A DNA stretch of 64,000 nucleotides from a plasmid: NCBI RefSeq assembly GCF_988243305.1, contig NZ_OZ547138.1. The stretch is one strand, 5' to 3'. Positions 3,517-18,395 of the stretch are shown in pieces. The notes beneath the pieces were generated by a model. The model did no database searches. It was not told where the DNA came from and was given only the letters and a program-made list of their open reading frames with translations. Within the stretch, counting starts at the first letter, position 1. The number at the start of each line of letters is the position of its first letter. Made by a program: the position numbers and the translations under genes.

Positions 3517-4443
3517 ATGCCAAACTGGTGCTCGAATCGTATGTATTTTTCTGGTGAACCGGCACAGATCGCTGAGATTAAACGACTGGCCAGCGGCGCA
3601 GTCACACCGTTTTATCGCCGCGCCACAAATGAAGGTATTCAGCTGTTTCTGGCCGGAAGTGCCGGACTTCTGCAGACCACTGAAGATGTGCAGTTTGAAC
3701 CGTGCCCCGGACTGACGGCTGCCGGACGTGGTGTTGTATCGCCGGAGAATATCGCGTTCACACGCTGGCTGACACACCTGCAGAACGGTGTGCTACTGGA
3801 TGAACAAAACTGCCTGATGCTGCATGAACTCTGGCTGCAGAGCGGTACTGGACAGCGTCGCTGGGAAGGATTACCGGACGATGTCAGGGATACCATCACC
3901 GCACTTTTCACCGCAAAAAGAGGTGACTGGTGTGGCTTCTGGAGTAACGAGGATGTATCGGTGTGGTGGAACCGTCTGTGTGACAACGTACTGCCGGAAA
4001 AAACCATGCCGTTTGACCTGCTGACGGTTTTGCCGACCCGCCTGGATATTGAAGTGAATGGCTTTAACGGCGGTGTTCTGAACGGTGTTCCTTCTGCATA
4101 TCACTGGTATACAGAACGGTATGGCGTGAAGTGGCCTTGTGGGTATGACCTGAATATCAGCAGTCAGGGGGAAAACTTCATTCAGGTAGATTTCGACACG
4201 CCGTGGTGTCAGCCGGAAAGCGACGTTGTTGCAGAATTAAGCCGCCGTTTCAGCTGCACAATGGAGCACTGGTATGCCGAACAGGGCTGCAATTTCTGTG
4301 GCTGGCAGCGATATGAGCGTGGCGAGCTTGTTGATGTGCTGTGGGGGGAGCTGGAATGGTCTTCCCCGACAGATGACGATGAGCTGCCGGAAGTCACCGG
4401 ACCTGCGTGGATAGTCGACAATGTGGCGCATTATGGCGGATGA
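3517..4443 (+). CDS. Conserved leading-region hypothetical protein (Cys/Trp-rich)
   Basis: ORF with GAGGAG RBS 7 nt upstream of ATG 3517; the longer frame from 3472 lacks an RBS. Confidence 0.5.
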   Translation: MPNWCSNRMYFSGEPAQIAEIKRLASGAVTPFYRRATNEGIQLFLAGSAGLLQTTEDVQFEPCPGLTAAGRGVVSPENIAFTRWLTHLQNGVLLDEQNCLMLHELWLQSGTGQRRWEGLPDDVRDTITALFTAKRGDWCGFWSNEDVSVWWNRLCDNVLPEKTMPFDLLTVLPTRLDIEVNGFNGGVLNGVPSAYHWYTERYGVKWPCGYDLNISSQGENFIQVDFDTPWCQPESDVVAELSRRFSCTMEHWYAEQGCNFCGWQRYERGELVDVLWGELEWSSPTDDDELPEVTGPAWIVDNVAHYGG

Positions 4444-4455
4444 AGTATGACGGAG

Positions 4456-4485
4456 ACGGGCGGGCAACCGCCCGTTTCTTTTCCG
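4456..4485 (+). terminator. Rho-independent terminator candidate
   Basis: Hairpin ACGGGCGGG-caac-CGCCCGT followed by TTCTTTTCC. Confidence 0.5.
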
Positions 4486-4827
4486 GTAAAGGATGTCGCC
4501 GGGCTCCTCTTTTTACTGCGCCGGCTGACGCGGCGCGGCAGGAACGCTGCCTGTGGTCAGTGTCCCGCGTCCGGTGGGCACGGGACGGGCGCTTTTACCG
4601 CTCCCGGCTGGCACCGGTGACAGTGTACGCCAGCCCGTCGCCCTTTTCTGATGAACGCCCTTCAAGCCGCTTTCGCGGCATAGCCTTGCCGTCAGAAAGA
4701 CGACGGCTGCGGTATTCCACGGTCGGCCTGACCCGTTACCGGACGCGGTGAACAGCCCACAGGCAGCGGGGAACGGGCACCACAGGGGTGCCCTCCCGGT
4801 GTCCTCTGTAAGAGAAGGAGCGTTGTT

Positions 4828-5511
4828 ATGTCCCGTTTTGTCCTCGGTAACTGCATCGATGTTATGGCCCGTATTCCTGATAACGCCATTGATTTCATAC
4901 TGACTGACCCGCCGTACCTCGTCGGTTTTCGTGACCGTTTCGGGCGCACCATCGCTGGCGATAAAACCGATGAATGGCTGCAACCGGCCTGTAATGAAAT
5001 GTACCGCGTACTCAAAAAAGACGCGCTGATGGTGAGCTTCTACGGCTGGAACCGCGTCGATCGCTTTATGGCCGCCTGGAAAAATGCGGGATTCAGCGTT
5101 GTTGGTCACCTGGTCTTCACCAAAAACTACACATCGAAGGCCGCATATGTGGGCTATCGCCACGAATGCGCCTACATCCTGGCAAAAGGCCGTCCACGTC
5201 TGCCACAAAACCCGCTGCCGGACGTGCTGGGCTGGAAATATTCGGGCAATCGTCATCACCCGACGGAAAAGCCCGTTACCAGCCTGCAACCGCTGATTGA
5301 GAGCTTCACACACCCGAACGCAATTGTGCTGGACCCGTTTGCAGGCAGCGGCTCAACCTGCGTCGCTGCCCTCCAGTCCGGACGCCGGTATATCGGTATC
5401 GAGCTGCTTGAGCAGTATCACCGTGCCGGGCAGCAACGCCTTGCCGCCGTGCAACGGGCCATGCAGCAGGGGGCCGCGAATGATGACTGGTTTATGCCGG
5501 AGGCTGCGTAA
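4828..5511 (+). CDS. Orphan N6-adenine DNA methyltransferase (beta-class, DPPY motif)
   Basis: Motif LTDPPYL near the N-terminus and FAGSGST near the C-terminus; no adjacent restriction endonuclease gene. Confidence 0.8.
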   Translation: MSRFVLGNCIDVMARIPDNAIDFILTDPPYLVGFRDRFGRTIAGDKTDEWLQPACNEMYRVLKKDALMVSFYGWNRVDRFMAAWKNAGFSVVGHLVFTKNYTSKAAYVGYRHECAYILAKGRPRLPQNPLPDVLGWKYSGNRHHPTEKPVTSLQPLIESFTHPNAIVLDPFAGSGSTCVAALQSGRRYIGIELLEQYHRAGQQRLAAVQRAMQQGAANDDWFMPEAA

Positions 5512-5733
5512 ATGAACTATGCCGGACACGAAAAACTGCGCGCCGACGTGGCGGAGGTGGCCAATGCCATGTGCGACCTGCGTACAACCATGAATGAGAT
5601 GGAGCAGCGGTACAGCTTTAATGCCGACACCCTGCCGGAACGTCTGGTGCGTCAGACGCTGTTTCGCGCAAACCGCCTCCTGATGGAGGCATATACCGAA
5701 ATTCTTGAACTGGATGCGTGCTTCAAAGATTAA
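5512..5733 (+). CDS. Small hypothetical protein, translationally coupled to the methyltransferase
   Basis: Start codon overlaps the methylase stop (TAAATG); 73 aa. Confidence 0.35.
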   Translation: MNYAGHEKLRADVAEVANAMCDLRTTMNEMEQRYSFNADTLPERLVRQTLFRANRLLMEAYTEILELDACFKD

Positions 5734-5745
5734 GGAGGAGACGAA

Positions 5746-6180
5746 ATGTACGGAACATGCGAAACGCTCTGCCGTGAGCTGGCAGCAAAGTATCCGGGAA
5801 ACACGCCGCTGATGCTGCTTATCTGGTCCCCGGAAGAGATTCAGGCCCTCGCTGACGGAATGGATATTTCTCTGTCCGATCATGAAATCAGAACCGTCCT
5901 GGCGCGCCTGGAGGACATCCCGGAAGACCAGCGGACTGAATCCGGTATTTCTTCCGGTGCGGCGATGGAGATTATCAATAACGTGAGAGAAAACCGCCAG
6001 GTGACCGTCCCTGCTGAACTGCTGGCGTCCCTGATTCAGACCGCCGAACAGGCACTGTGGAAACGTGAGTGGGCCGCCCGTGATAACGGCCTCGCCGTCC
6101 CGGAATGCGTCACCCGCCGACAGGCGGTGGTTAATCAGGCCCGCGCCCTGCTGAAAAACAACACACGCGAAAACGACTGA
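5746..6180 (+). CDS. Hypothetical leading-region protein; paralog of the ORF at 7881-8303
   Basis: 144 aa; GGAG RBS; shares motif R..VTVPA..L and acidic character with 7881-8303. Confidence 0.5.
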   Translation: MYGTCETLCRELAAKYPGNTPLMLLIWSPEEIQALADGMDISLSDHEIRTVLARLEDIPEDQRTESGISSGAAMEIINNVRENRQVTVPAELLASLIQTAEQALWKREWAARDNGLAVPECVTRRQAVVNQARALLKNNTREND

Positions 6181-6224
6181 TGTTATCGCCGCCTGCGGGC
6201 GGCGATTCAGGGAGACCATGAATC

Positions 6225-6995
6225 ATGAACGAAACGCTGAATGCACTGATTTATCGCCACGCCAGCAACCTGCTGCTGGCGCAGGGCTGGCCGGAAGAGA
6301 CGGATGTTGACCAGCGTAATCCGAAGTATCCGGGCTGGATCAGCATTTACGTGCGGCTGGATGTGCCCCGGCTGGCGACGTTACTTATCAACCGTCACGG
6401 CGGCGTACTGCCGCCGCTCCTGGCCTCCGCCATTCAGAAACTGACCGGAACCGGGGCGGAACTGGTACTGTCCGGCAGTCAGTGGCAGTCGCTGCCGGTA
6501 CTTCCGGCAGACGGAACACAGGTGTTTTTCCCGTATGCCGGAGAATGGCTGACCGAAGACGAAATCAGGGCAGTTCTTGATGCAGTGCGCAATGCAGTAC
6601 GAAGCATCTGTTACCAAGTGGCAGAAGATGCCCGGCGTATCCGGGCGGCGCTGACCACCACCGGTCAGACGTTGCTGACCCGCCAGACGCGCCGCTTTCG
6701 TCTGGTTGTGAAGGAAAGCGATTACCCCTGCTGGCTTGATGAAGATGACGAAAATCTGCCCGTGGTGCTCGATGCCATTCTGAACCGTGGCGCTCGTTTT
6801 TCGTCGGTGGAAATGTATCTGGTCAGTGAGTGTGTGGAGCATATCCTGTCCAGTGGGCTGGCCTGCGATGTGCTGCGTATACCTGATGAACCGTCCCGTC
6901 GCTGGTTTGACCGGGATATTCTGCGGGAGGTGGTCCTGGAAGCCCGGACTGAAATCCGCAGCATGGCGGATGCACTGGCGAAAATCCGGAAATGA
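6225..6995 (+). CDS. Hypothetical leading-region protein
   Basis: 256-aa ORF in the same orientation as neighbours. Confidence 0.45.
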
Positions 6996-7051
6996 TGACG
7001 CTGGCGGGGAAAATCTCCGCCTTTTCCAGCCGGTCCCCGGAAAGAGCAAAA

Positions 7052-7390
7052 GGATGTCGCCGCAGGCTCCGCTTTACCCGGCCATGCGGGGCATGGCCTT
7101 GTGGGTTTTCAGTTATGTGGCCTCAGCGTCGTGTGCGGGCTGTGCCGTGCCTCCATCGTAGCCGGGCTTCTGCGGGCGGGTTGCAAGGTAAGGTGAACCG
7201 CTGCGGTCACCCGGTCCCTCCTTCCCGTCTGCCGTGATTTTCCGGTCGTTCACCCGCTCAGATTTCGCGGTCTCACCCTCCAACTCCCGTCAGCCGTGCG
7301 CGTCAGGCTGCGGCTTCCCTTGCGCCCTTGCAACCCTGCAGGTCCGGCAAAGATGGAGGCACGGCACCGCCCGGTGTCGCGGAATATGTG
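7052..7390. repeat. Structured GC-rich repeat, family A copy 1 (ssi/Frpo-like candidate single-strand promoter) upstream of klcA
   Basis: About 340 bp near-identical to 14001-14340; both end just upstream of an antirestriction gene start. Confidence 0.6.
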
Positions 7391-7408
7391 AACAACGGAG
7401 GAAATCCC

Positions 7409-7834
7409 ATGCAGTATGCGAAACCTGTCACTCTGAACGTTGAAGAGTGCGACCGTCTGTCTTTTCTGCCTTACCTGTTTGGCCTGGATTTTCTGTATGC
7501 CGAAGCGTCTGTATACGCGCTGGCGAAAAAAATGATGCCGGAATATGAAGGCGGATTCTGGCACTTCATCCGCCTGCCGGACGGTGGCGGTTACATGATG
7601 CCGGATGGCGACCGTTTTCATCTGGTCAACGGTGAAAACTGGTTTGACCGTACCGTGAGTGCTGATGCCGCAGGCATCATTTTGACTTCCCTTGTGATTA
7701 ACCGCCAGTTGTGGCTGTACCACGACAGCGGGGATGCAGGGTTGACACACCTGTACAGGATGCGCGATGCGCAGTTGTGGAGCCACATCGAATTTCACCC
7801 CGAATGCAACGCGATTTACGCGGCACTTGACTGA
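7409..7834 (+). CDS. klcA: KlcA/ArdB-family antirestriction protein
   Basis: Internal start MQYAKPVTLNVEECDRLSFLPY with GGAGG RBS gives 141 aa typical of KlcA. Confidence 0.8.
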   Translation: MQYAKPVTLNVEECDRLSFLPYLFGLDFLYAEASVYALAKKMMPEYEGGFWHFIRLPDGGGYMMPDGDRFHLVNGENWFDRTVSADAAGIILTSLVINRQLWLYHDSGDAGLTHLYRMRDAQLWSHIEFHPECNAIYAALD

Positions 7835-7880
7835 TTAACGGACGGGGCGGCAATGCCGCCCCTGTAAAGGAGACGAGAAC

Positions 7881-8303
7881 ATGTACTGTACTGTTAAAGA
7901 AATCATCCGCGATGTACTGGATACAGACGTGCCGGACAGTGAATGCGTTTTTGCCGTGGTGCTGACCCGTGGGGATGTGCGTCACATAGCCCAGGACTGG
8001 AACCTGTCAGACGATGAGCTGGAAACCGTCATGCAGCGACTGGACGATGCCTTTGAGCATGGTGCGGATGTCAGCGTTGTTCACGACGTTGTTCGTGAAC
8101 TGATGGAAGAAAAGCGCGCCAGCCGTCATGTGACAGTCCCGGCGGTGATGCTGGAAAAAGTGATGGCGCTGGCAGGCAGTGAAATGAAGCGCCTGTATGC
8201 CGTCGGGAGTGAGAACGGGGGCGACGGTGACGCATTCGTCAGGGAGGAACGCGAAGCAATGGACGTTGTGTTACAGGCGCTGGACGGGGAGACGATGTCA
8301 TGA
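7881..8303 (+). CDS. Hypothetical leading-region protein; paralog of the ORF at 5746-6180
   Basis: 140 aa; related to 5746-6180. Confidence 0.5.
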   Translation: MYCTVKEIIRDVLDTDVPDSECVFAVVLTRGDVRHIAQDWNLSDDELETVMQRLDDAFEHGADVSVVHDVVRELMEEKRASRHVTVPAVMLEKVMALAGSEMKRLYAVGSENGGDGDAFVREEREAMDVVLQALDGETMS

Positions 8304-8491
8304 ATATCAGCACAGAAACCCGCGAAATTCTGCGTAATTACAGGGCCGTGATTAATGCGCGGCGTCGTGAAATGGGGCAGAAACCGCTCACCACCGCGCA
8401 GATTGTTGATGAAATCTGCGATTTTGTGGCGAATCAGCAGGCGGTTTTCCTGGGCGGTCACTACATCCTTCAGGGCAGCAGAAACAGGTGA
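8300..8491 (+). CDS. Small hypothetical protein
   Basis: 63 aa; start overlaps the preceding stop (ATGA). Confidence 0.3.
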   Translation: MNISTETREILRNYRAVINARRREMGQKPLTTAQIVDEICDFVANQQAVFLGGHYILQGSRNR

Positions 8492-8693
8492 TACAGGGGC
8501 AGGCGGTGGAGGCCGCCTGTCAGCCCGCGCGAAAACCCCAGGCAGGCTGACGCCTGCCGGAAACGCGGGGTGCAGCGCCTGCGGCGCTGCCGGCCCGGCT
8601 TTCCGGTCAGAAGGTAGTGTATGGCTGTATGCAGGGAACAGGAGTGATATTCCGTGACACTGTCACCGTTTCTGGCTGTCTTTTATTGCGCCC

Positions 8694-9200
8694 ACTTCGG
8701 CTCCCGGCTGCCTGGCGGCATCCGGTCGTCAGGCCCGACTCCGACGGGCAGCTGCTGGCGCACCCGCCAGTCTCCGCCGAACCCGCTGGCGCGGTTTCGG
8801 GCTGCCGCTACGGTCCGATGCGTGAAAACCCGGCTTGCAGCGACCGTTCCGGTCGCGCCGCCCCTGTCGCGCCGTGACCTGCGCTCCCTGCACACCTGAC
8901 GGTGTGTGAGGAAACTGCGCCTGATGGCGCAGCAGTCCTCCCTCCTGCCGCCACTCCTGCGGCCTGTTTCCCGCTGTGGACTTTCCGGGGGGCAGACGTA
9001 ACCCCCTCCCGTTCCATCTGTCCAGGGTGAGATGCACCGGCCACAAAATTTTTAGCCATGAACCCGGCAAAAAATTTTGCGTCCGCCCCCGGACAGCTGC
9101 CCCGTGAGGCGGTAAACGGGCCCCCATCGGAAAGGTCCACTGCGGGGAGAAAACCCTGTGAAGTGGACGGCAGGAGGAGCTTTCGCTCCTCTGAAGGGGC
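8694..9200. repeat. Structured GC-rich repeat, family B copy 1 (ssi/Frpo-like) upstream of ssb
   Basis: About 500 bp homologous to 15041-15545 and, in part, 18071-18395. Confidence 0.6.
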
Positions 9201-9260
9201 ACATGAACGTCCCGTCGCCGGTATCCGGTTTATCTCACATCTTTCAGTCAGGAGGTTCTT

Positions 9261-9788
9261 ATGAGTGCACGTGGTATCAACAAGGTCATCCTCGTCGGGC
9301 GTCTGGGCAATGATCCGGAGGTCCGTTACATCCCCAACGGGGGCGCAGTGGCAAACCTGCAGGTGGCCACGTCAGAAAGCTGGCGCGACAAACAGACGGG
9401 GGAGATGCGGGAGCAGACGGAATGGCACCGCGTGGTGCTGTTCGGCAAGCTCGCGGAAGTGGCAGGTGAATATCTGCGCAAGGGCGCGCAGGTCTACATC
9501 GAGGGGCAACTCCGTACCCGTAGCTGGGAAGATAACGGTATCACCCGTTACGTCACTGAAATTCTTGTTAAGACCACGGGCACCATGCAGATGCTGGGGA
9601 GTGCACCACAGCAGAACGCTCAGGCGCAACCGAAGCCTCAGCAGTACGGCCAGCCACAGAGTGCTGACGCAACGAAAAAAGGGAGCGCGAAAACGAAAGG
9701 CCGTGGACGTAAGGCTGCGCAGCCGGAGCCTCAGCCGCAACCGCCGGAGGGTGAGGATTACTGGTTTTCAGACGATATCCCGTTCTGA
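9261..9788 (+). CDS. ssb: Plasmid single-stranded DNA-binding protein
   Basis: 175 aa, N-terminal OB-fold sequence [19 protein letters not shown], Gln/Pro-rich linker, acidic tail DDIPF. Confidence 0.95.
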
Positions 9789-13893: not shown

Positions 13894-14000
13894 ACCAGTG
13901 GAGGTATGCTTGAGGGGCAGGGACATGCCAGTCATGATCGTTTCATATCAGGGGTGGTCTGGAGGTCATGCGGTGTGCTCCCTGCTCTCGCCGGAATAAG

Positions 14001-14340
14001 GAAGTCGCCGGCGGCTCCGCTTTTACCCGGCCATGCGGGGCATGGCCTTGTGGGTTTTCAGTTATGTGGCCGCCGTGTCGTGTGCGGGCTGTGCCGTGCC
14101 TCCATCGTAGCCGGGCTTCTGCGGGCGGGATGCAAGGTAAGATGAACCGCTGCGGTCACCCGGTCCCTCCTTCCCGTCTGCCGTGATTTTCCGGTCGTTC
14201 ACCCGCTCAGATTTCGCGGTCTCACCCTCCAACTCCCGTCAGCCGTGCGCGTCGGGCTGCGGCTTTCCTTGCGCCCTTGCATCCCTGCAGGCCCGGCAAA
14301 GATGGAGGCACGGCACCGCCCGGTGTCGCAGAACATGTGA
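14001..14340. repeat. Structured GC-rich repeat, family A copy 2 (ssi/Frpo-like) upstream of ardA
   Basis: Near-identical to 7052-7390. Confidence 0.6.
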
Positions 14341-14357
14341 CTATGGAGGATTCGGGA

Positions 14358-14858: not shown

Positions 14859-15040
14859 TTTACTCCCCCGCTCCGGCGGGGGTATGGCCTGCCAGGCCGC
14901 CGGAAAACCCTGGCAGGCTTACGCCTGCCTGAAATGCAGGAGGGCCGCGCCTGCGGCGCTGCCCTTCCTGCCCGTCATGGTGTGAGGCATTTTTCTGTTA
15001 TGTCGTTTCTGTTGTTCTGATTTCCGGAGGCGGGGACACC

Positions 15041-15545
15041 TTCGGCTCCCGGCTGCCTGGCGGCATCCGGTCGTCAGGCCCGACTCCGACAGGCAGCTGC
15101 TGGCGCACCCGCCAGTCTCCGCCGAACCCGCTGGCGCGGTTTCGGGCTGCCGCTACGGTCCGATGTCTGAAAAACCAGGCTTGCAGCGACCGTTCCGGTC
15201 GCGCCGCCTCTGTCGCGCCGTGACCTGCGCTCCCTGCACACCTGACGGTGTGTAAGGAAACTGCGCCTGATGGCGCAGTTGTCTGCCCTTCCGCCGCCAC
15301 CCCTGCGGCCTGTTTCCCGCTGTGGACTTTCCGGGGGCTGAAGCGGCCACAACACGTGTCAGCCGTCCAGGGGGGAGATGTACCAGCCACAAAACTTTTT
15401 GCCGCAAGCGTCAAAAACTTTTGCGTCTGCCCCCGGACAACTGCCCCGTGCCGTGGCTGTCGCTGCCCCATCGGAAAGGTCCACTGCGGGGAGAAACCCC
15501 GAAGAAGTGGACGGCAGAAGGGGCTTTCGCCCCTCCGGGGGAGCA
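15041..15545. repeat. Structured GC-rich repeat, family B copy 2 (ssi/Frpo-like)
   Basis: Homologous to 8694-9200. Confidence 0.6.
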
Positions 15546-17968: not shown

Positions 17969-18070
17969 TTTTAATTGCAGATGTCGTGCTGTTTTCTCTG
18001 TTTTCACCTGTGCGGGAGTGGTGTGCCAGTGACCACCACATGCCATTGTTGTGCCGTCGTTTTTCTTCAG

Positions 18071-18395
18071 TCGCGCCGGATGCGGCGCTCCCTGCACACC
18101 TGACGGTGTGTAAGGCCACTGCGCCTGATGGCGCAGCTGTCTCTGCCTGTCTGCCGCCGCACTGCGGCCTGTTCTCCGCAGACGGACTTTCCGGGGGAAC
18201 ATACACGACCACATCCCGTTTCAGTTATCCAGGGGAGAGATGTACCAGCCACAAAACTTTTTGCCGCAGGCGTCAAAAACTTTTGCGTCTGCCCCCGGAC
18301 AACTGCCCCGTGACGTGGTGAGCATCCCCCGTCGGAAAGGTCCACTGCGGGGAAATCCCCGAAGACCCGGACGGCAGAAGGAGCTTCGCTCCTCC
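18071..18395. repeat. Structured GC-rich repeat, family B copy 3 (partial; ssi/Frpo-like)
   Basis: Homologous to the right-hand 330 bp of 8694-9200 and 15041-15545. Confidence 0.55.

Follow-up and report, generated by a model that had tools for sequence, protein, structure and literature searches.

The two small acidic proteins encoded on either side of klcA in the window (the whole 64,000-nucleotide stretch of plasmid DNA analysed here) are diverged paralogs within one small Enterobacterales plasmid family, DUF1380 (PF07128), and both are genuine genes under purifying selection. They belong to two separate unidirectional gene blocks, each with a long hairpin-forming stretch at its 5′ side, and in every context examined the two clades of the family keep different neighbours: the YubF type (copy A) always lies 3′ of a methylase-YubE pair and the YubJ type (copy B) always 3′ of KlcA/ArdB, with no exceptions. 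The features concerned are the following.

4444..4827, no strand: structured intergenic DNA 5′ of the methylase, candidate 'class 3' ssDNA promoter of operon 1
4828..5511, + strand: N6/N4 DNA methylase, homologue of the M.EcoGIX-type single-strand-specific adenine methyltransferase (Pfam PF01555, E 1.2e-40), first gene of operon 1
5512..5733, + strand: YubE family protein, 73 aa (phrog_4830, E 2e-34)
5746..6180, + strand: DUF1380 paralog A (YubF/YcgB type), 144 aa, acidic, PF07128 match
6225..6995, + strand: YubG family protein, 256 aa (phrog_8919, E 4e-133), last gene of operon 1
6996..7408, no strand: structured intergenic DNA 5′ of klcA with a long hairpin at ~7135-7385, candidate 'class 2' ssDNA promoter of operon 2
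7409..7834, + strand: KlcA/ArdB-type antirestriction protein (YubI; PF03230, E 2.7e-26), first gene of operon 2
7881..8303, + strand: DUF1380 paralog B (YubJ/YcjA/YcgC type), 140 aa, very acidic, hhalign match to the A clade
8300..8491, + strand: basic protein of 63 aa (pI 9.8), located where F has YubK
8492..9260, no strand: highly structured copy of an Frpo/ssi-type 'class 1' ssDNA promoter, 5′ of ssb and 3′ boundary of operon 2

The coordinates, strand and lengths that the sequence-only reading gave for copies A and B are exact, and both products are acidic as it stated, with a pI of 4.80 and a net charge of −7 for copy A and a pI of 4.39 and a net charge of −17 for copy B. An AAGGAGG Shine-Dalgarno sequence lies 5′ of the copy A start. 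The dN/dS ratios (0.22-0.32 for copy A, 0.18 for copy B) are well under 1 and are accompanied by a third-position bias. RefSeq names both 'DUF1380 family protein' (WP_001546462.1, with the same coordinates as copy A, and WP_001546488.1 for copy B), in an identical plasmid with an IncI-gamma/K1 replicon and likewise in F and pESBL. These are the only two DUF1380 copies in the window.

The proposed paralogy holds well beyond what chance would give. BLASTP aligns the copies at 26% identity over 116 aa (E 4e-10), and their Smith-Waterman score of 97 compares with a mean of 29.4 (sd 5.2) for composition-preserving shuffles (z = 13), none of the 2000 shuffles reaching 97. Profiles of the A and B clades align almost end to end in hhalign (probability 99.6%, E 1.9e-23, 134 columns). 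The shared motif had been written as RHVTVPA; this literal form occurs in copy B only (SRHVTVPAVML, against NRQVTVPAELL in copy A), while R-[QH]-V-T-V-P-A is common to both. Throughout the DUF1380 family its R and first V hardly vary, and the N-terminal MY.T together with R.VTVPA is invariant in a 12-sequence alignment spanning both clades. Copy A matches PF07128 over profile positions 1-137/137 (183 bits, E 3.6e-54; gathering cut-off 26 bits), whereas copy B stays under that cut-off with 21.7 bits over positions 1-102 (E 2.2e-4). Precomputed PF07128.18 matches are found on some close B relatives, and distant B-type proteins are marked 'weak'; evidently the Pfam model was built from the A subfamily. 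The family phrog_9024 matches both copies, which have 404 and 512 homologues, and a joint A+B profile retrieves both clades, with 289 representatives in a whole-library profile search. Sub-threshold matches of copy A to PP-binding (E 0.005) and of copy B to FabG2 (17 bits, cut-off 339) were set aside as noise. A pairwise identity of merely 22-26% and the low Pfam score of copy B might speak for a chance or compositional likeness between two acidic helical ORFs, or for one or both not being genes, but the shuffles, the full-length profile alignment, the conserved motifs, the dN/dS ratios and the numbers of homologues refute this reading and leave it a negligible probability.

The duplication had been called ancient, and this is borne out: a neighbour-joining tree parts the family into YubF-like and YubJ-like clades, and both copies occur with the same neighbours in plasmids where each is 30-40% identical to its window counterpart. 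Copy A is the counterpart of F-plasmid YubF and copy B that of F YubJ. Duplication involved no more than the DUF1380 gene itself, whose neighbours are not paralogous; a larger duplicated segment is ruled out, YubE showing no similarity to the 63-aa ORF and YubG none to KlcA. A-type genes lie 3′ of a methylase-YubE pair in the window, in F and pESBL and at L004/5, L006-8, L011, L013, L015/16, L020 (with a truncated copy at L021) and L023; at L022 the A gene is preceded only by a truncated ORF of 34 aa. B-type genes have a PF03230 gene on their 5′ side in the window, in F and pESBL and at L004/5, L009, L013/14, L015/16, L017 and L022. These clade-specific neighbours hold from Escherichia to Enterobacter and Pectobacterium(-type) plasmids. 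We suggest that, after the duplication, each copy would have become tied to one of two anti-restriction modules.

The first block consists of the methylase, YubE, copy A and YubG. Its methylase has the same position as M.EcoGIX in pESBL and a dN/dS of 0.07. The YubE ATG directly abuts the methylase stop (TAAATG); the gene has a dN/dS of 0.15-0.16, and homologues at its position carry the precomputed Pfam family PF27407 'YubE'. YubG, annotated as 'YubG family protein' in one recent RefSeq record, has no Pfam match and no PDB sequence match (dN/dS 0.13). The second block consists of KlcA/ArdB, copy B and the 63-aa protein. The gene between the copies is indeed klcA, a PF03230 gene named 'antirestriction protein' in RefSeq (dN/dS 0.10). 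To say that the copies flank it is nevertheless loose, the 256-aa gene and a 413-bp structured intergenic region intervening between copy A and klcA. The translational coupling claimed for the 63-aa ORF is plain, its start lying inside the copy B stop codon (gtcATGAat, 4-nt overlap). This protein is presumably YubK, a name that follows from alphabetical gene order. It has 199 database relatives, the best 120 of the 199 all being close, and a dN/dS of 0.11 that is drawn from 7 differences only. A 58-aa homologue (47% identity, E 1e-20) with the same 4-nt overlap occurs on a divergent contig, for which the best plasmid matches are Pectobacterium plasmids at 88-89% nucleotide identity. The ORFs 3′ of two distant B-type genes (L009, L010) also overlap the stop codon, but they resemble non-coding translations and are unlike the 63-aa protein.

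Both blocks lie in the leading region, as had been proposed: oriT is located between mobC and mobA/nikA at ~19.8 kb of the window, with the genes 11-14 kb away on the non-relaxase side and ssb, psiB, psiA and ardA nearby. No sigma-70-like promoter was found in 4300-9400, where 2.0 would be expected. As single-stranded DNA, the region 5′ of the methylase folds at −107 kcal/mol (z = −5.3; none of 100 shuffles is as stable), and its position corresponds to that of the pESBL hairpin 5′ of M.EcoGIX, whose start site has been mapped by 5′ RACE (PMC12672017). RefSeq annotates most of this region (4440-4751) as a hypothetical CDS. Between first, second and third codon positions its substitutions are distributed 4, 1 and 3 against pL2-87 and 4, 2 and 1 against F, with no third-position bias and with an indel included. 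The region 5′ of klcA (−98 kcal/mol, z = −3.5) has a mean column identity of ~94% with its pESBL and F counterparts, and immediately 5′ of ardA, at 13998-14350, there is a second copy of 354 bp (95% identity), as PMC12672017 describes for class 2 promoters. The third region, highly structured (z = −8.0), has copies at 15040-15535 (88% identity) and 18070-18394 (80%); together these match ssi1-3 of IncI1 plasmids (PMC12672017). The same paper reports that the hairpins of the near-identical plasmids pESBL and F are ssDNA promoters and that expression of the KlcA and M.EcoGIX operons rises transiently within minutes of the DNA entering the recipient. The window shares the marks of early leading-region genes: both DUF1380 genes are transcribed towards oriT, and the hairpins 5′ of both operons are homologous to pESBL promoter regions mapped by 5′ RACE. 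By analogy, their position in these operons points to early expression of the window genes as well.

The 2.7-kb block is found in 3155 of 5426 complete E. coli genomes (58%), and DUF1380 matches extend over plasmids of Escherichia, Klebsiella, Salmonella, Shigella, Enterobacter, Citrobacter and Pectobacterium; neither protein is present in the phage genome collection. A pattern search of contigs for the B clade gave at least two further loci, on a 'Streptomyces morookaense' contig (94% identity) and in an Oscillospiraceae MAG (87%), which probably reflect contamination or mis-binning.

AlphaFold2 (AF2) models of copy A (pLDDT 88) and copy B (pLDDT 80) have six helices in the same order, with an N-terminal helical domain, a conserved linker and a C-terminal helical hairpin. 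Neither model has a PDB match in Foldseek at E ≤ 0.001, and the PDB sequence and profile matches, for example to a de novo design (E 1.5e-4, 34 residues aligned) and to calmodulins (E > 0.07), were rejected as noise. Because the models are six-helical and the nearly invariant residues of the family are only L, E, G, R, V and L, none of which looks catalytic, we infer that the proteins would be non-enzymatic.

By a slight lean, we favour the view that the paralogs are non-enzymatic acidic helical binding proteins, made early, which aid establishment in some recipients, most likely through a target in host defence or DNA processing. In outline, each would comprise a helical domain of ~80 residues at the N-terminus, an extended R-x-V-T-V-P-A linker and an antiparallel helical hairpin at the C-terminus; its synthesis would probably fall within the single-stranded phase, once the plasmid is in the new host, and the likeliest route would be binding of a host defence or DNA-processing protein, beside the anti-restriction gene that heads each operon. 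Help limited to some recipients would be in keeping with transposon data from pESBL, whose Hp10 is 92% identical to copy A and Hp12 96% identical to copy B. By TnSeq, Hp10, Hp12 and Hp13 are each 'non-essential' with probability 1.00, as are M.EcoGIX, KlcA, ArdA and PsiB, and with insertions in Hp10 or Hp12 the plasmid is still maintained and still transferred normally to a laboratory recipient that lacks defences; M.EcoGIX itself matters only with restriction systems in the recipient (PMC4288162). Sharing an operon with an anti-restriction gene does not prove a common pathway.

Each paralog might instead be the dedicated partner of the lead protein of its own operon, copy B as a cofactor, chaperone or potentiator of KlcA/ArdB and copy A as a subunit or regulator of the ssDNA methylase-YubE-YubG set, the duplication having yielded two adaptors for two different anti-restriction machines. 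The strict clade-specific synteny in every context examined, in Escherichia, Enterobacter and Pectobacterium-type plasmids, is consistent with such partnerships, as are the tight gene spacing and strong ribosome-binding sites. KlcA/ArdB alleviates Type I restriction in cells and not with purified components, which leaves room for a missing factor, and the modelled C-terminal helical hairpin would be a typical protein-binding module. However, the same KlcA type occurs without a B copy at L023, and in the material examined no DUF1380 gene adjoins the KlcA/ArdB homologues of IncP and IncN plasmids or of K-12 cryptic prophages. In RK2 the gene order is klcA-klcB-korC, with no known DUF1380 neighbour. 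M.EcoGIX cloned alone methylates DNA (PMC7736820). We consider dedicated partnership unlikely.

We also doubt that the paralogs serve establishment apart from host immunity, for example in second-strand synthesis, ssDNA protection, SOS or stress signalling or feedback on leading-region transcription. Here ssb, psiB, psiA and a ParB-like gene show that early genes need not be anti-restriction genes; the leading region is described as linking DNA processing with early expression (abstract of bioRxiv 10.64898/2026.01.09.698686), and the basic partner of copy B might suggest nucleic-acid binding. Both paralogs are, however, strongly acidic and without a DNA-binding motif, they lie 3′ of two anti-restriction genes and not of ssb or psiB, and the TnSeq data show no maintenance or transfer defect. 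More ambitious, and quite improbable in our estimate, is the proposal that DUF1380 forms a new anti-defence accessory class whose subfamilies are obligate or potentiating partners of the modules always preceding them, with the YubJ type as the missing factor of KlcA/ArdB and the YubF type working with the methylase, YubE and YubG.

Both genes are carried by IncF, IncI and IncK plasmids, which are major carriers of resistance genes in Enterobacteriaceae. Should they prove to act against host defences, or as cofactors for either KlcA or the ssDNA methylase, this would go some way to explaining how such plasmids become established. As a sequence observation the paralogy adds little to routine annotation, the DUF1380 label in routine RefSeq records making it already known; the useful remainder is the clade-specific fixed synteny, which offers a concrete hypothesis that is cheap to test experimentally and which, with the separate hairpin-led operons and the structure models, is the new part of the present analysis.

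A literature search returned no functional work, antirestriction included, on DUF1380, YubF (also called YcgB/YceB/YfcB) or YubJ (also YcjA/YcgC/YfeC). Samuel et al. 2024 (Nature 635:186) count both types with the largest leading-region families that lack characterisation, and suggest that many such families are anti-defence. In their list the YubF type ranks as family 7, with 3957 members, against 3145 for the YubJ type (supplementary file 3); the A type is labelled 'Uncharacterized; DUF1380' and the B type bears labels borrowed from its neighbours (Supplementary Table 1). The two types are clustered as two families, and the passages covered do not comment on paralogy or clade-specific synteny. 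The F plasmid has the same gene order as the window, and as family members the copies do not differ from the DUF1380 proteins of F and pESBL; the one nuance is the diverged subfamily of copy B, which the Pfam model picks up weakly. PADLOC gave no matches, and the PHROGs matches were to families of unknown function only. The PF03230 Antirestrict HMM matches neither paralog, its sole match being 7409-7834, and in the comparison with DNA mimics of the ArdA/Ocr type neither a PF07275 match nor a Foldseek PDB match was found, acidity alone being common to both. Although the paralogs thus differ from ArdA (PF07275, a DNA mimic) and KlcA/ArdB (PF03230) in sequence and in fold, a helical domain with a helical hairpin in place of theirs, they resemble them in being small, acidic and dispensable for a defenceless recipient, and in lying in the leading region, on the strand that can be transcribed from the T-strand, within ssDNA-promoter operons.

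The sequence-only reading described a pair of acidic paralogues flanking klcA, and both genes lie exactly at the positions that it gave and are acidic (pI 4.80 for copy A, 4.39 for copy B). Their surroundings are as follows.

4828-5511, + strand: methylase, M.EcoGIX type
5512-5733, + strand: 73-aa gene 5' of copy A, Pfam PF27407, "YubE"
5746-6180, + strand: copy A, 144 aa, DUF1380 (YubF type)
6225-6995, + strand: 256-aa gene 3' of copy A, "YubG family" in recent RefSeq records
7409-7834, + strand: klcA, PF03230
7881-8303, + strand: copy B, 140 aa, DUF1380 (YubJ type)
8300-8491, + strand: 63-aa ORF

Pairwise alignment and profile comparison both found significant similarity between the copies. 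They are 26% identical across 116 residues (BLASTP, E 4e-10), their Smith-Waterman score stands 13 standard deviations over shuffles and is reached by 0 of 2000 composition-preserving shuffles, and their subfamily profiles align end to end (hhalign, probability 99.6%, E 1.9e-23). Judged on sequence, the similarity is real. Both proteins begin with MY(G/C)T, and the motif ascribed to them is common to both as R-(Q/H)-V-T-V-P-A at residues 82-90, its R and first V being nearly invariant family-wide. There is no third DUF1380 copy within the 64-kb window.

As a pair of annotated DUF1380 members, YubF and YubJ, the two genes were known before, and they are extremely common. Copy A scores 183 bits against PF07128 (DUF1380) and copy B 21.7 bits, slightly below the Pfam cut-off of 26; RefSeq/PGAP names both "DUF1380 family protein" on the plasmid that matches the window at 100% identity here, and likewise on F and pESBL. 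Samuel et al. 2024 (supplementary file 3) attach the names YcgB/YceB/YfcB/YubF to the family of copy A and YcjA/YcgC/YfeC/YubJ to that of copy B. Given the RefSeq naming and the presence of the block 5746-8491 at ≥80% coverage in 3155 of 5426 complete E. coli genomes (nearly always plasmid-borne) and in at least 5000 PLSDB plasmids, the paralogous pair is ordinary. Public start-codon calls for the YubF-type gene differ (144, 155 and 184 aa; F plasmid 4966-5520; P0122, P0125, P0129), the 184-aa version running into YubE; both the family alignment and an AAGGAGG site favour the 144-aa version, which starts with MYGT.

A joint profile of both copies, run against 1.84 billion representative proteins, gave 289 matches at E ≤ 0.001, which include many fragments; by this measure the family is small. 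Matches in named plasmid records were from Enterobacterales in every case, and no family member was found in a phage genome collection. In a neighbour-joining tree, 27 full-length members fall into an A-like and a B-like clade. Four comparison loci (L004/5, L013, L015/16 and L022) keep both copies in the same order at only 30-40% identity to those of the window; the plasmids that these contigs match are from Enterobacter and, at greater distance (88-89% nucleotide identity), from Pectobacterium. The duplication is therefore older than the split of these plasmid backbones, as the proposal of an ancient event had it, and since the neighbouring genes are unrelated to one another the duplicated unit was the DUF1380 gene alone. 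Two short contigs, one labelled Streptomyces morookaense and the other an Oscillospiraceae MAG (L018, L019), carry genes nearly identical (94% and 87%) to the enterobacterial YubJ type; this is almost certainly assembly contamination or mis-binning.

Both copies are, on coding-sequence evidence, functional genes: relative to F and pL2-87, substitutions favour the third codon position, and dN/dS in A, B and the 63-aa ORF is 0.22-0.32, 0.18 and 0.11 (the last from 7 differences), respectively. In a pESBL transposon screen the orthologues Hp10 (of A), Hp12 (of B) and Hp13 were non-essential for maintenance and transfer (probability 1.00 each), as were M.EcoGIX, KlcA, ArdA and PsiB; M.EcoGIX mattered only with restriction systems in recipients (PMC4288162). 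AF2 models built on the 27-sequence alignment (pLDDT 88 for A, 80 for B) predict six helices in the same order, arranged as an N-terminal domain of ~80 residues, a conserved linker in extended form and, at the C terminus, a long antiparallel helical hairpin. A PDB search with both models found no significant resemblance, and none of the nearly invariant positions (L, E, G, R, V, L) has the look of a catalytic residue.

The suggested coupling of the 63-aa ORF holds for the second gene, whose stop codon it overlaps as ATGA. A homologue at L013 (5426-5602), found by synteny on a contig whose nearest plasmid matches are Pectobacterium plasmids, is 47% identical and has the same 4-nt overlap, so the ORF is a real, coupled gene. 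Relatives among the matches listed (best 120 of 199) are all at least 82% identical, the L013 version being lower. The protein is basic (pI 9.8) and matches no Pfam, PHROG or NCBIfam family; the ORF is missing from some lineages that have copy B.

The main addition of our analysis is context, namely a clade-specific coupling of the two DUF1380 types to two anti-restriction modules, which provides one testable lead. The A type is preceded by methylase-YubE in the window, F, pESBL, L004/5, L006-8, L011, L013, L015/16, L020 (truncated copy L021) and L023, that is, in all A-type contexts with upstream genes on the contig; at L022 the sole ORF upstream of A is a truncated one of 34 aa. The B type is preceded by a PF03230 KlcA/ArdB gene in the window, F, pESBL, L004/5, L009, L013/14, L015/16, L017 and L022. 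This rule covers all contexts with readable upstream genes. Methylase stop and YubE start abut directly (TAAATG, 5509-5514), which makes translational coupling of YubE to the methylase probable.

Such synteny, together with the reported in-vivo-only activity of KlcA/ArdB, agrees with a model in which KlcA and the methylase module each have one paralogue as a dedicated partner. We consider this unlikely: KlcA genes lacking a B neighbour weaken the proposal, as does M.EcoGIX, which still methylates DNA when cloned alone. The synteny rule also fails in reverse: L023 has KlcA of the same type without a B copy, and at L006-8 copy A is followed by ArdA, without KlcA or B. At L023 (6877-7978), KlcA is followed by ~1.1 kb of non-coding DNA rather than a DUF1380 gene, and then by ssb; this stretch holds a short tandem repeat, (TSD)n or (GIA)n according to frame. 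We favour a looser role, in which the DUF1380 copies would be acidic binding proteins of small size that are produced transiently once the plasmid is in its new host; they may aid plasmid establishment conditionally, probably working side by side with the anti-restriction gene that shares the operon.

The E. coli plasmid p1-S1-KEN-03-A (IncI-gamma/K1, MOBP, conjugative) is 100% identical to the window over this stretch. Placement of the pair in the leading region is borne out by the position of oriT and by the neighbouring genes, and the stretches 5' of three of these are strongly structured as single-stranded DNA.

~19.8 kb: oriT, between mobC and mobA/nikA, which makes 3.4-19 kb the leading region
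3.4-19 kb, all + strand, toward oriT: DUF1281, methylase, klcA, ssb, DUF905 gene, ParB-like gene, psiB, psiA, ardA
4444-4827: structured ssDNA 5' of methylase, fold z = -5.3, class 3 match
6996-7408: structured ssDNA 5' of klcA, fold z = -3.5, ~250-nt hairpin, class 2 match
8492-9260: structured ssDNA 5' of ssb, fold z = -8, class 1 match

A scan of 4300-9400 gave no sigma-70-like promoter, where 2.0 would be expected. The klcA-upstream element shows ~94% conservation in pESBL and F. Its region 7050-7402 recurs directly 5' of ardA (13998-14350; 354 bp, 95% identity), in agreement with the class 2 promoter pair reported for pESBL; the window copy departs from pESBL and F on both hairpin arms (~7170-7200 and 7330-7355), which looks like co-ordinated replacement of a promoter-forming segment. 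The ssb-upstream element has three copies (8695-9191, 15040-15535 and 18070-18394; 88% and 80% identity), presumably the ssi1-3/Frpo class 1 promoters; in the first copy RefSeq has a small hypothetical CDS (~8629-8877) and a fragment of a "pilus assembly protein" pseudogene, both likely spurious. RefSeq also places a 103-aa "hypothetical protein" (WP_012615291.1) at 4440-4751, with equivalents in F and pESBL. Its translation is rich in Arg/Gly/Pro, its DNA folds as a very stable ssDNA hairpin, and its few substitutions relative to F and pL2-87 lack third-position bias and include one indel. Rather than being a gene, the stretch probably serves the methylase operon as its class 3 promoter.

In pESBL transconjugants, expression of six leading-region operons rises by as much as ~500-fold within 15 min, and each operon is transcribed from an ssDNA promoter whose start was mapped by 5' RACE: class 1 ssi/Frpo, class 2 5' of klcA and ardA, and class 3 5' of M.EcoGIX; the KlcA and M.EcoGIX operons are induced in F as well (PMC12672017). 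From their operon positions, A and B would themselves be induced. The window has the same layout of structured elements and leading-region operons as pESBL, which puts copy A third in the class 3 operon and copy B second in a class 2 operon.
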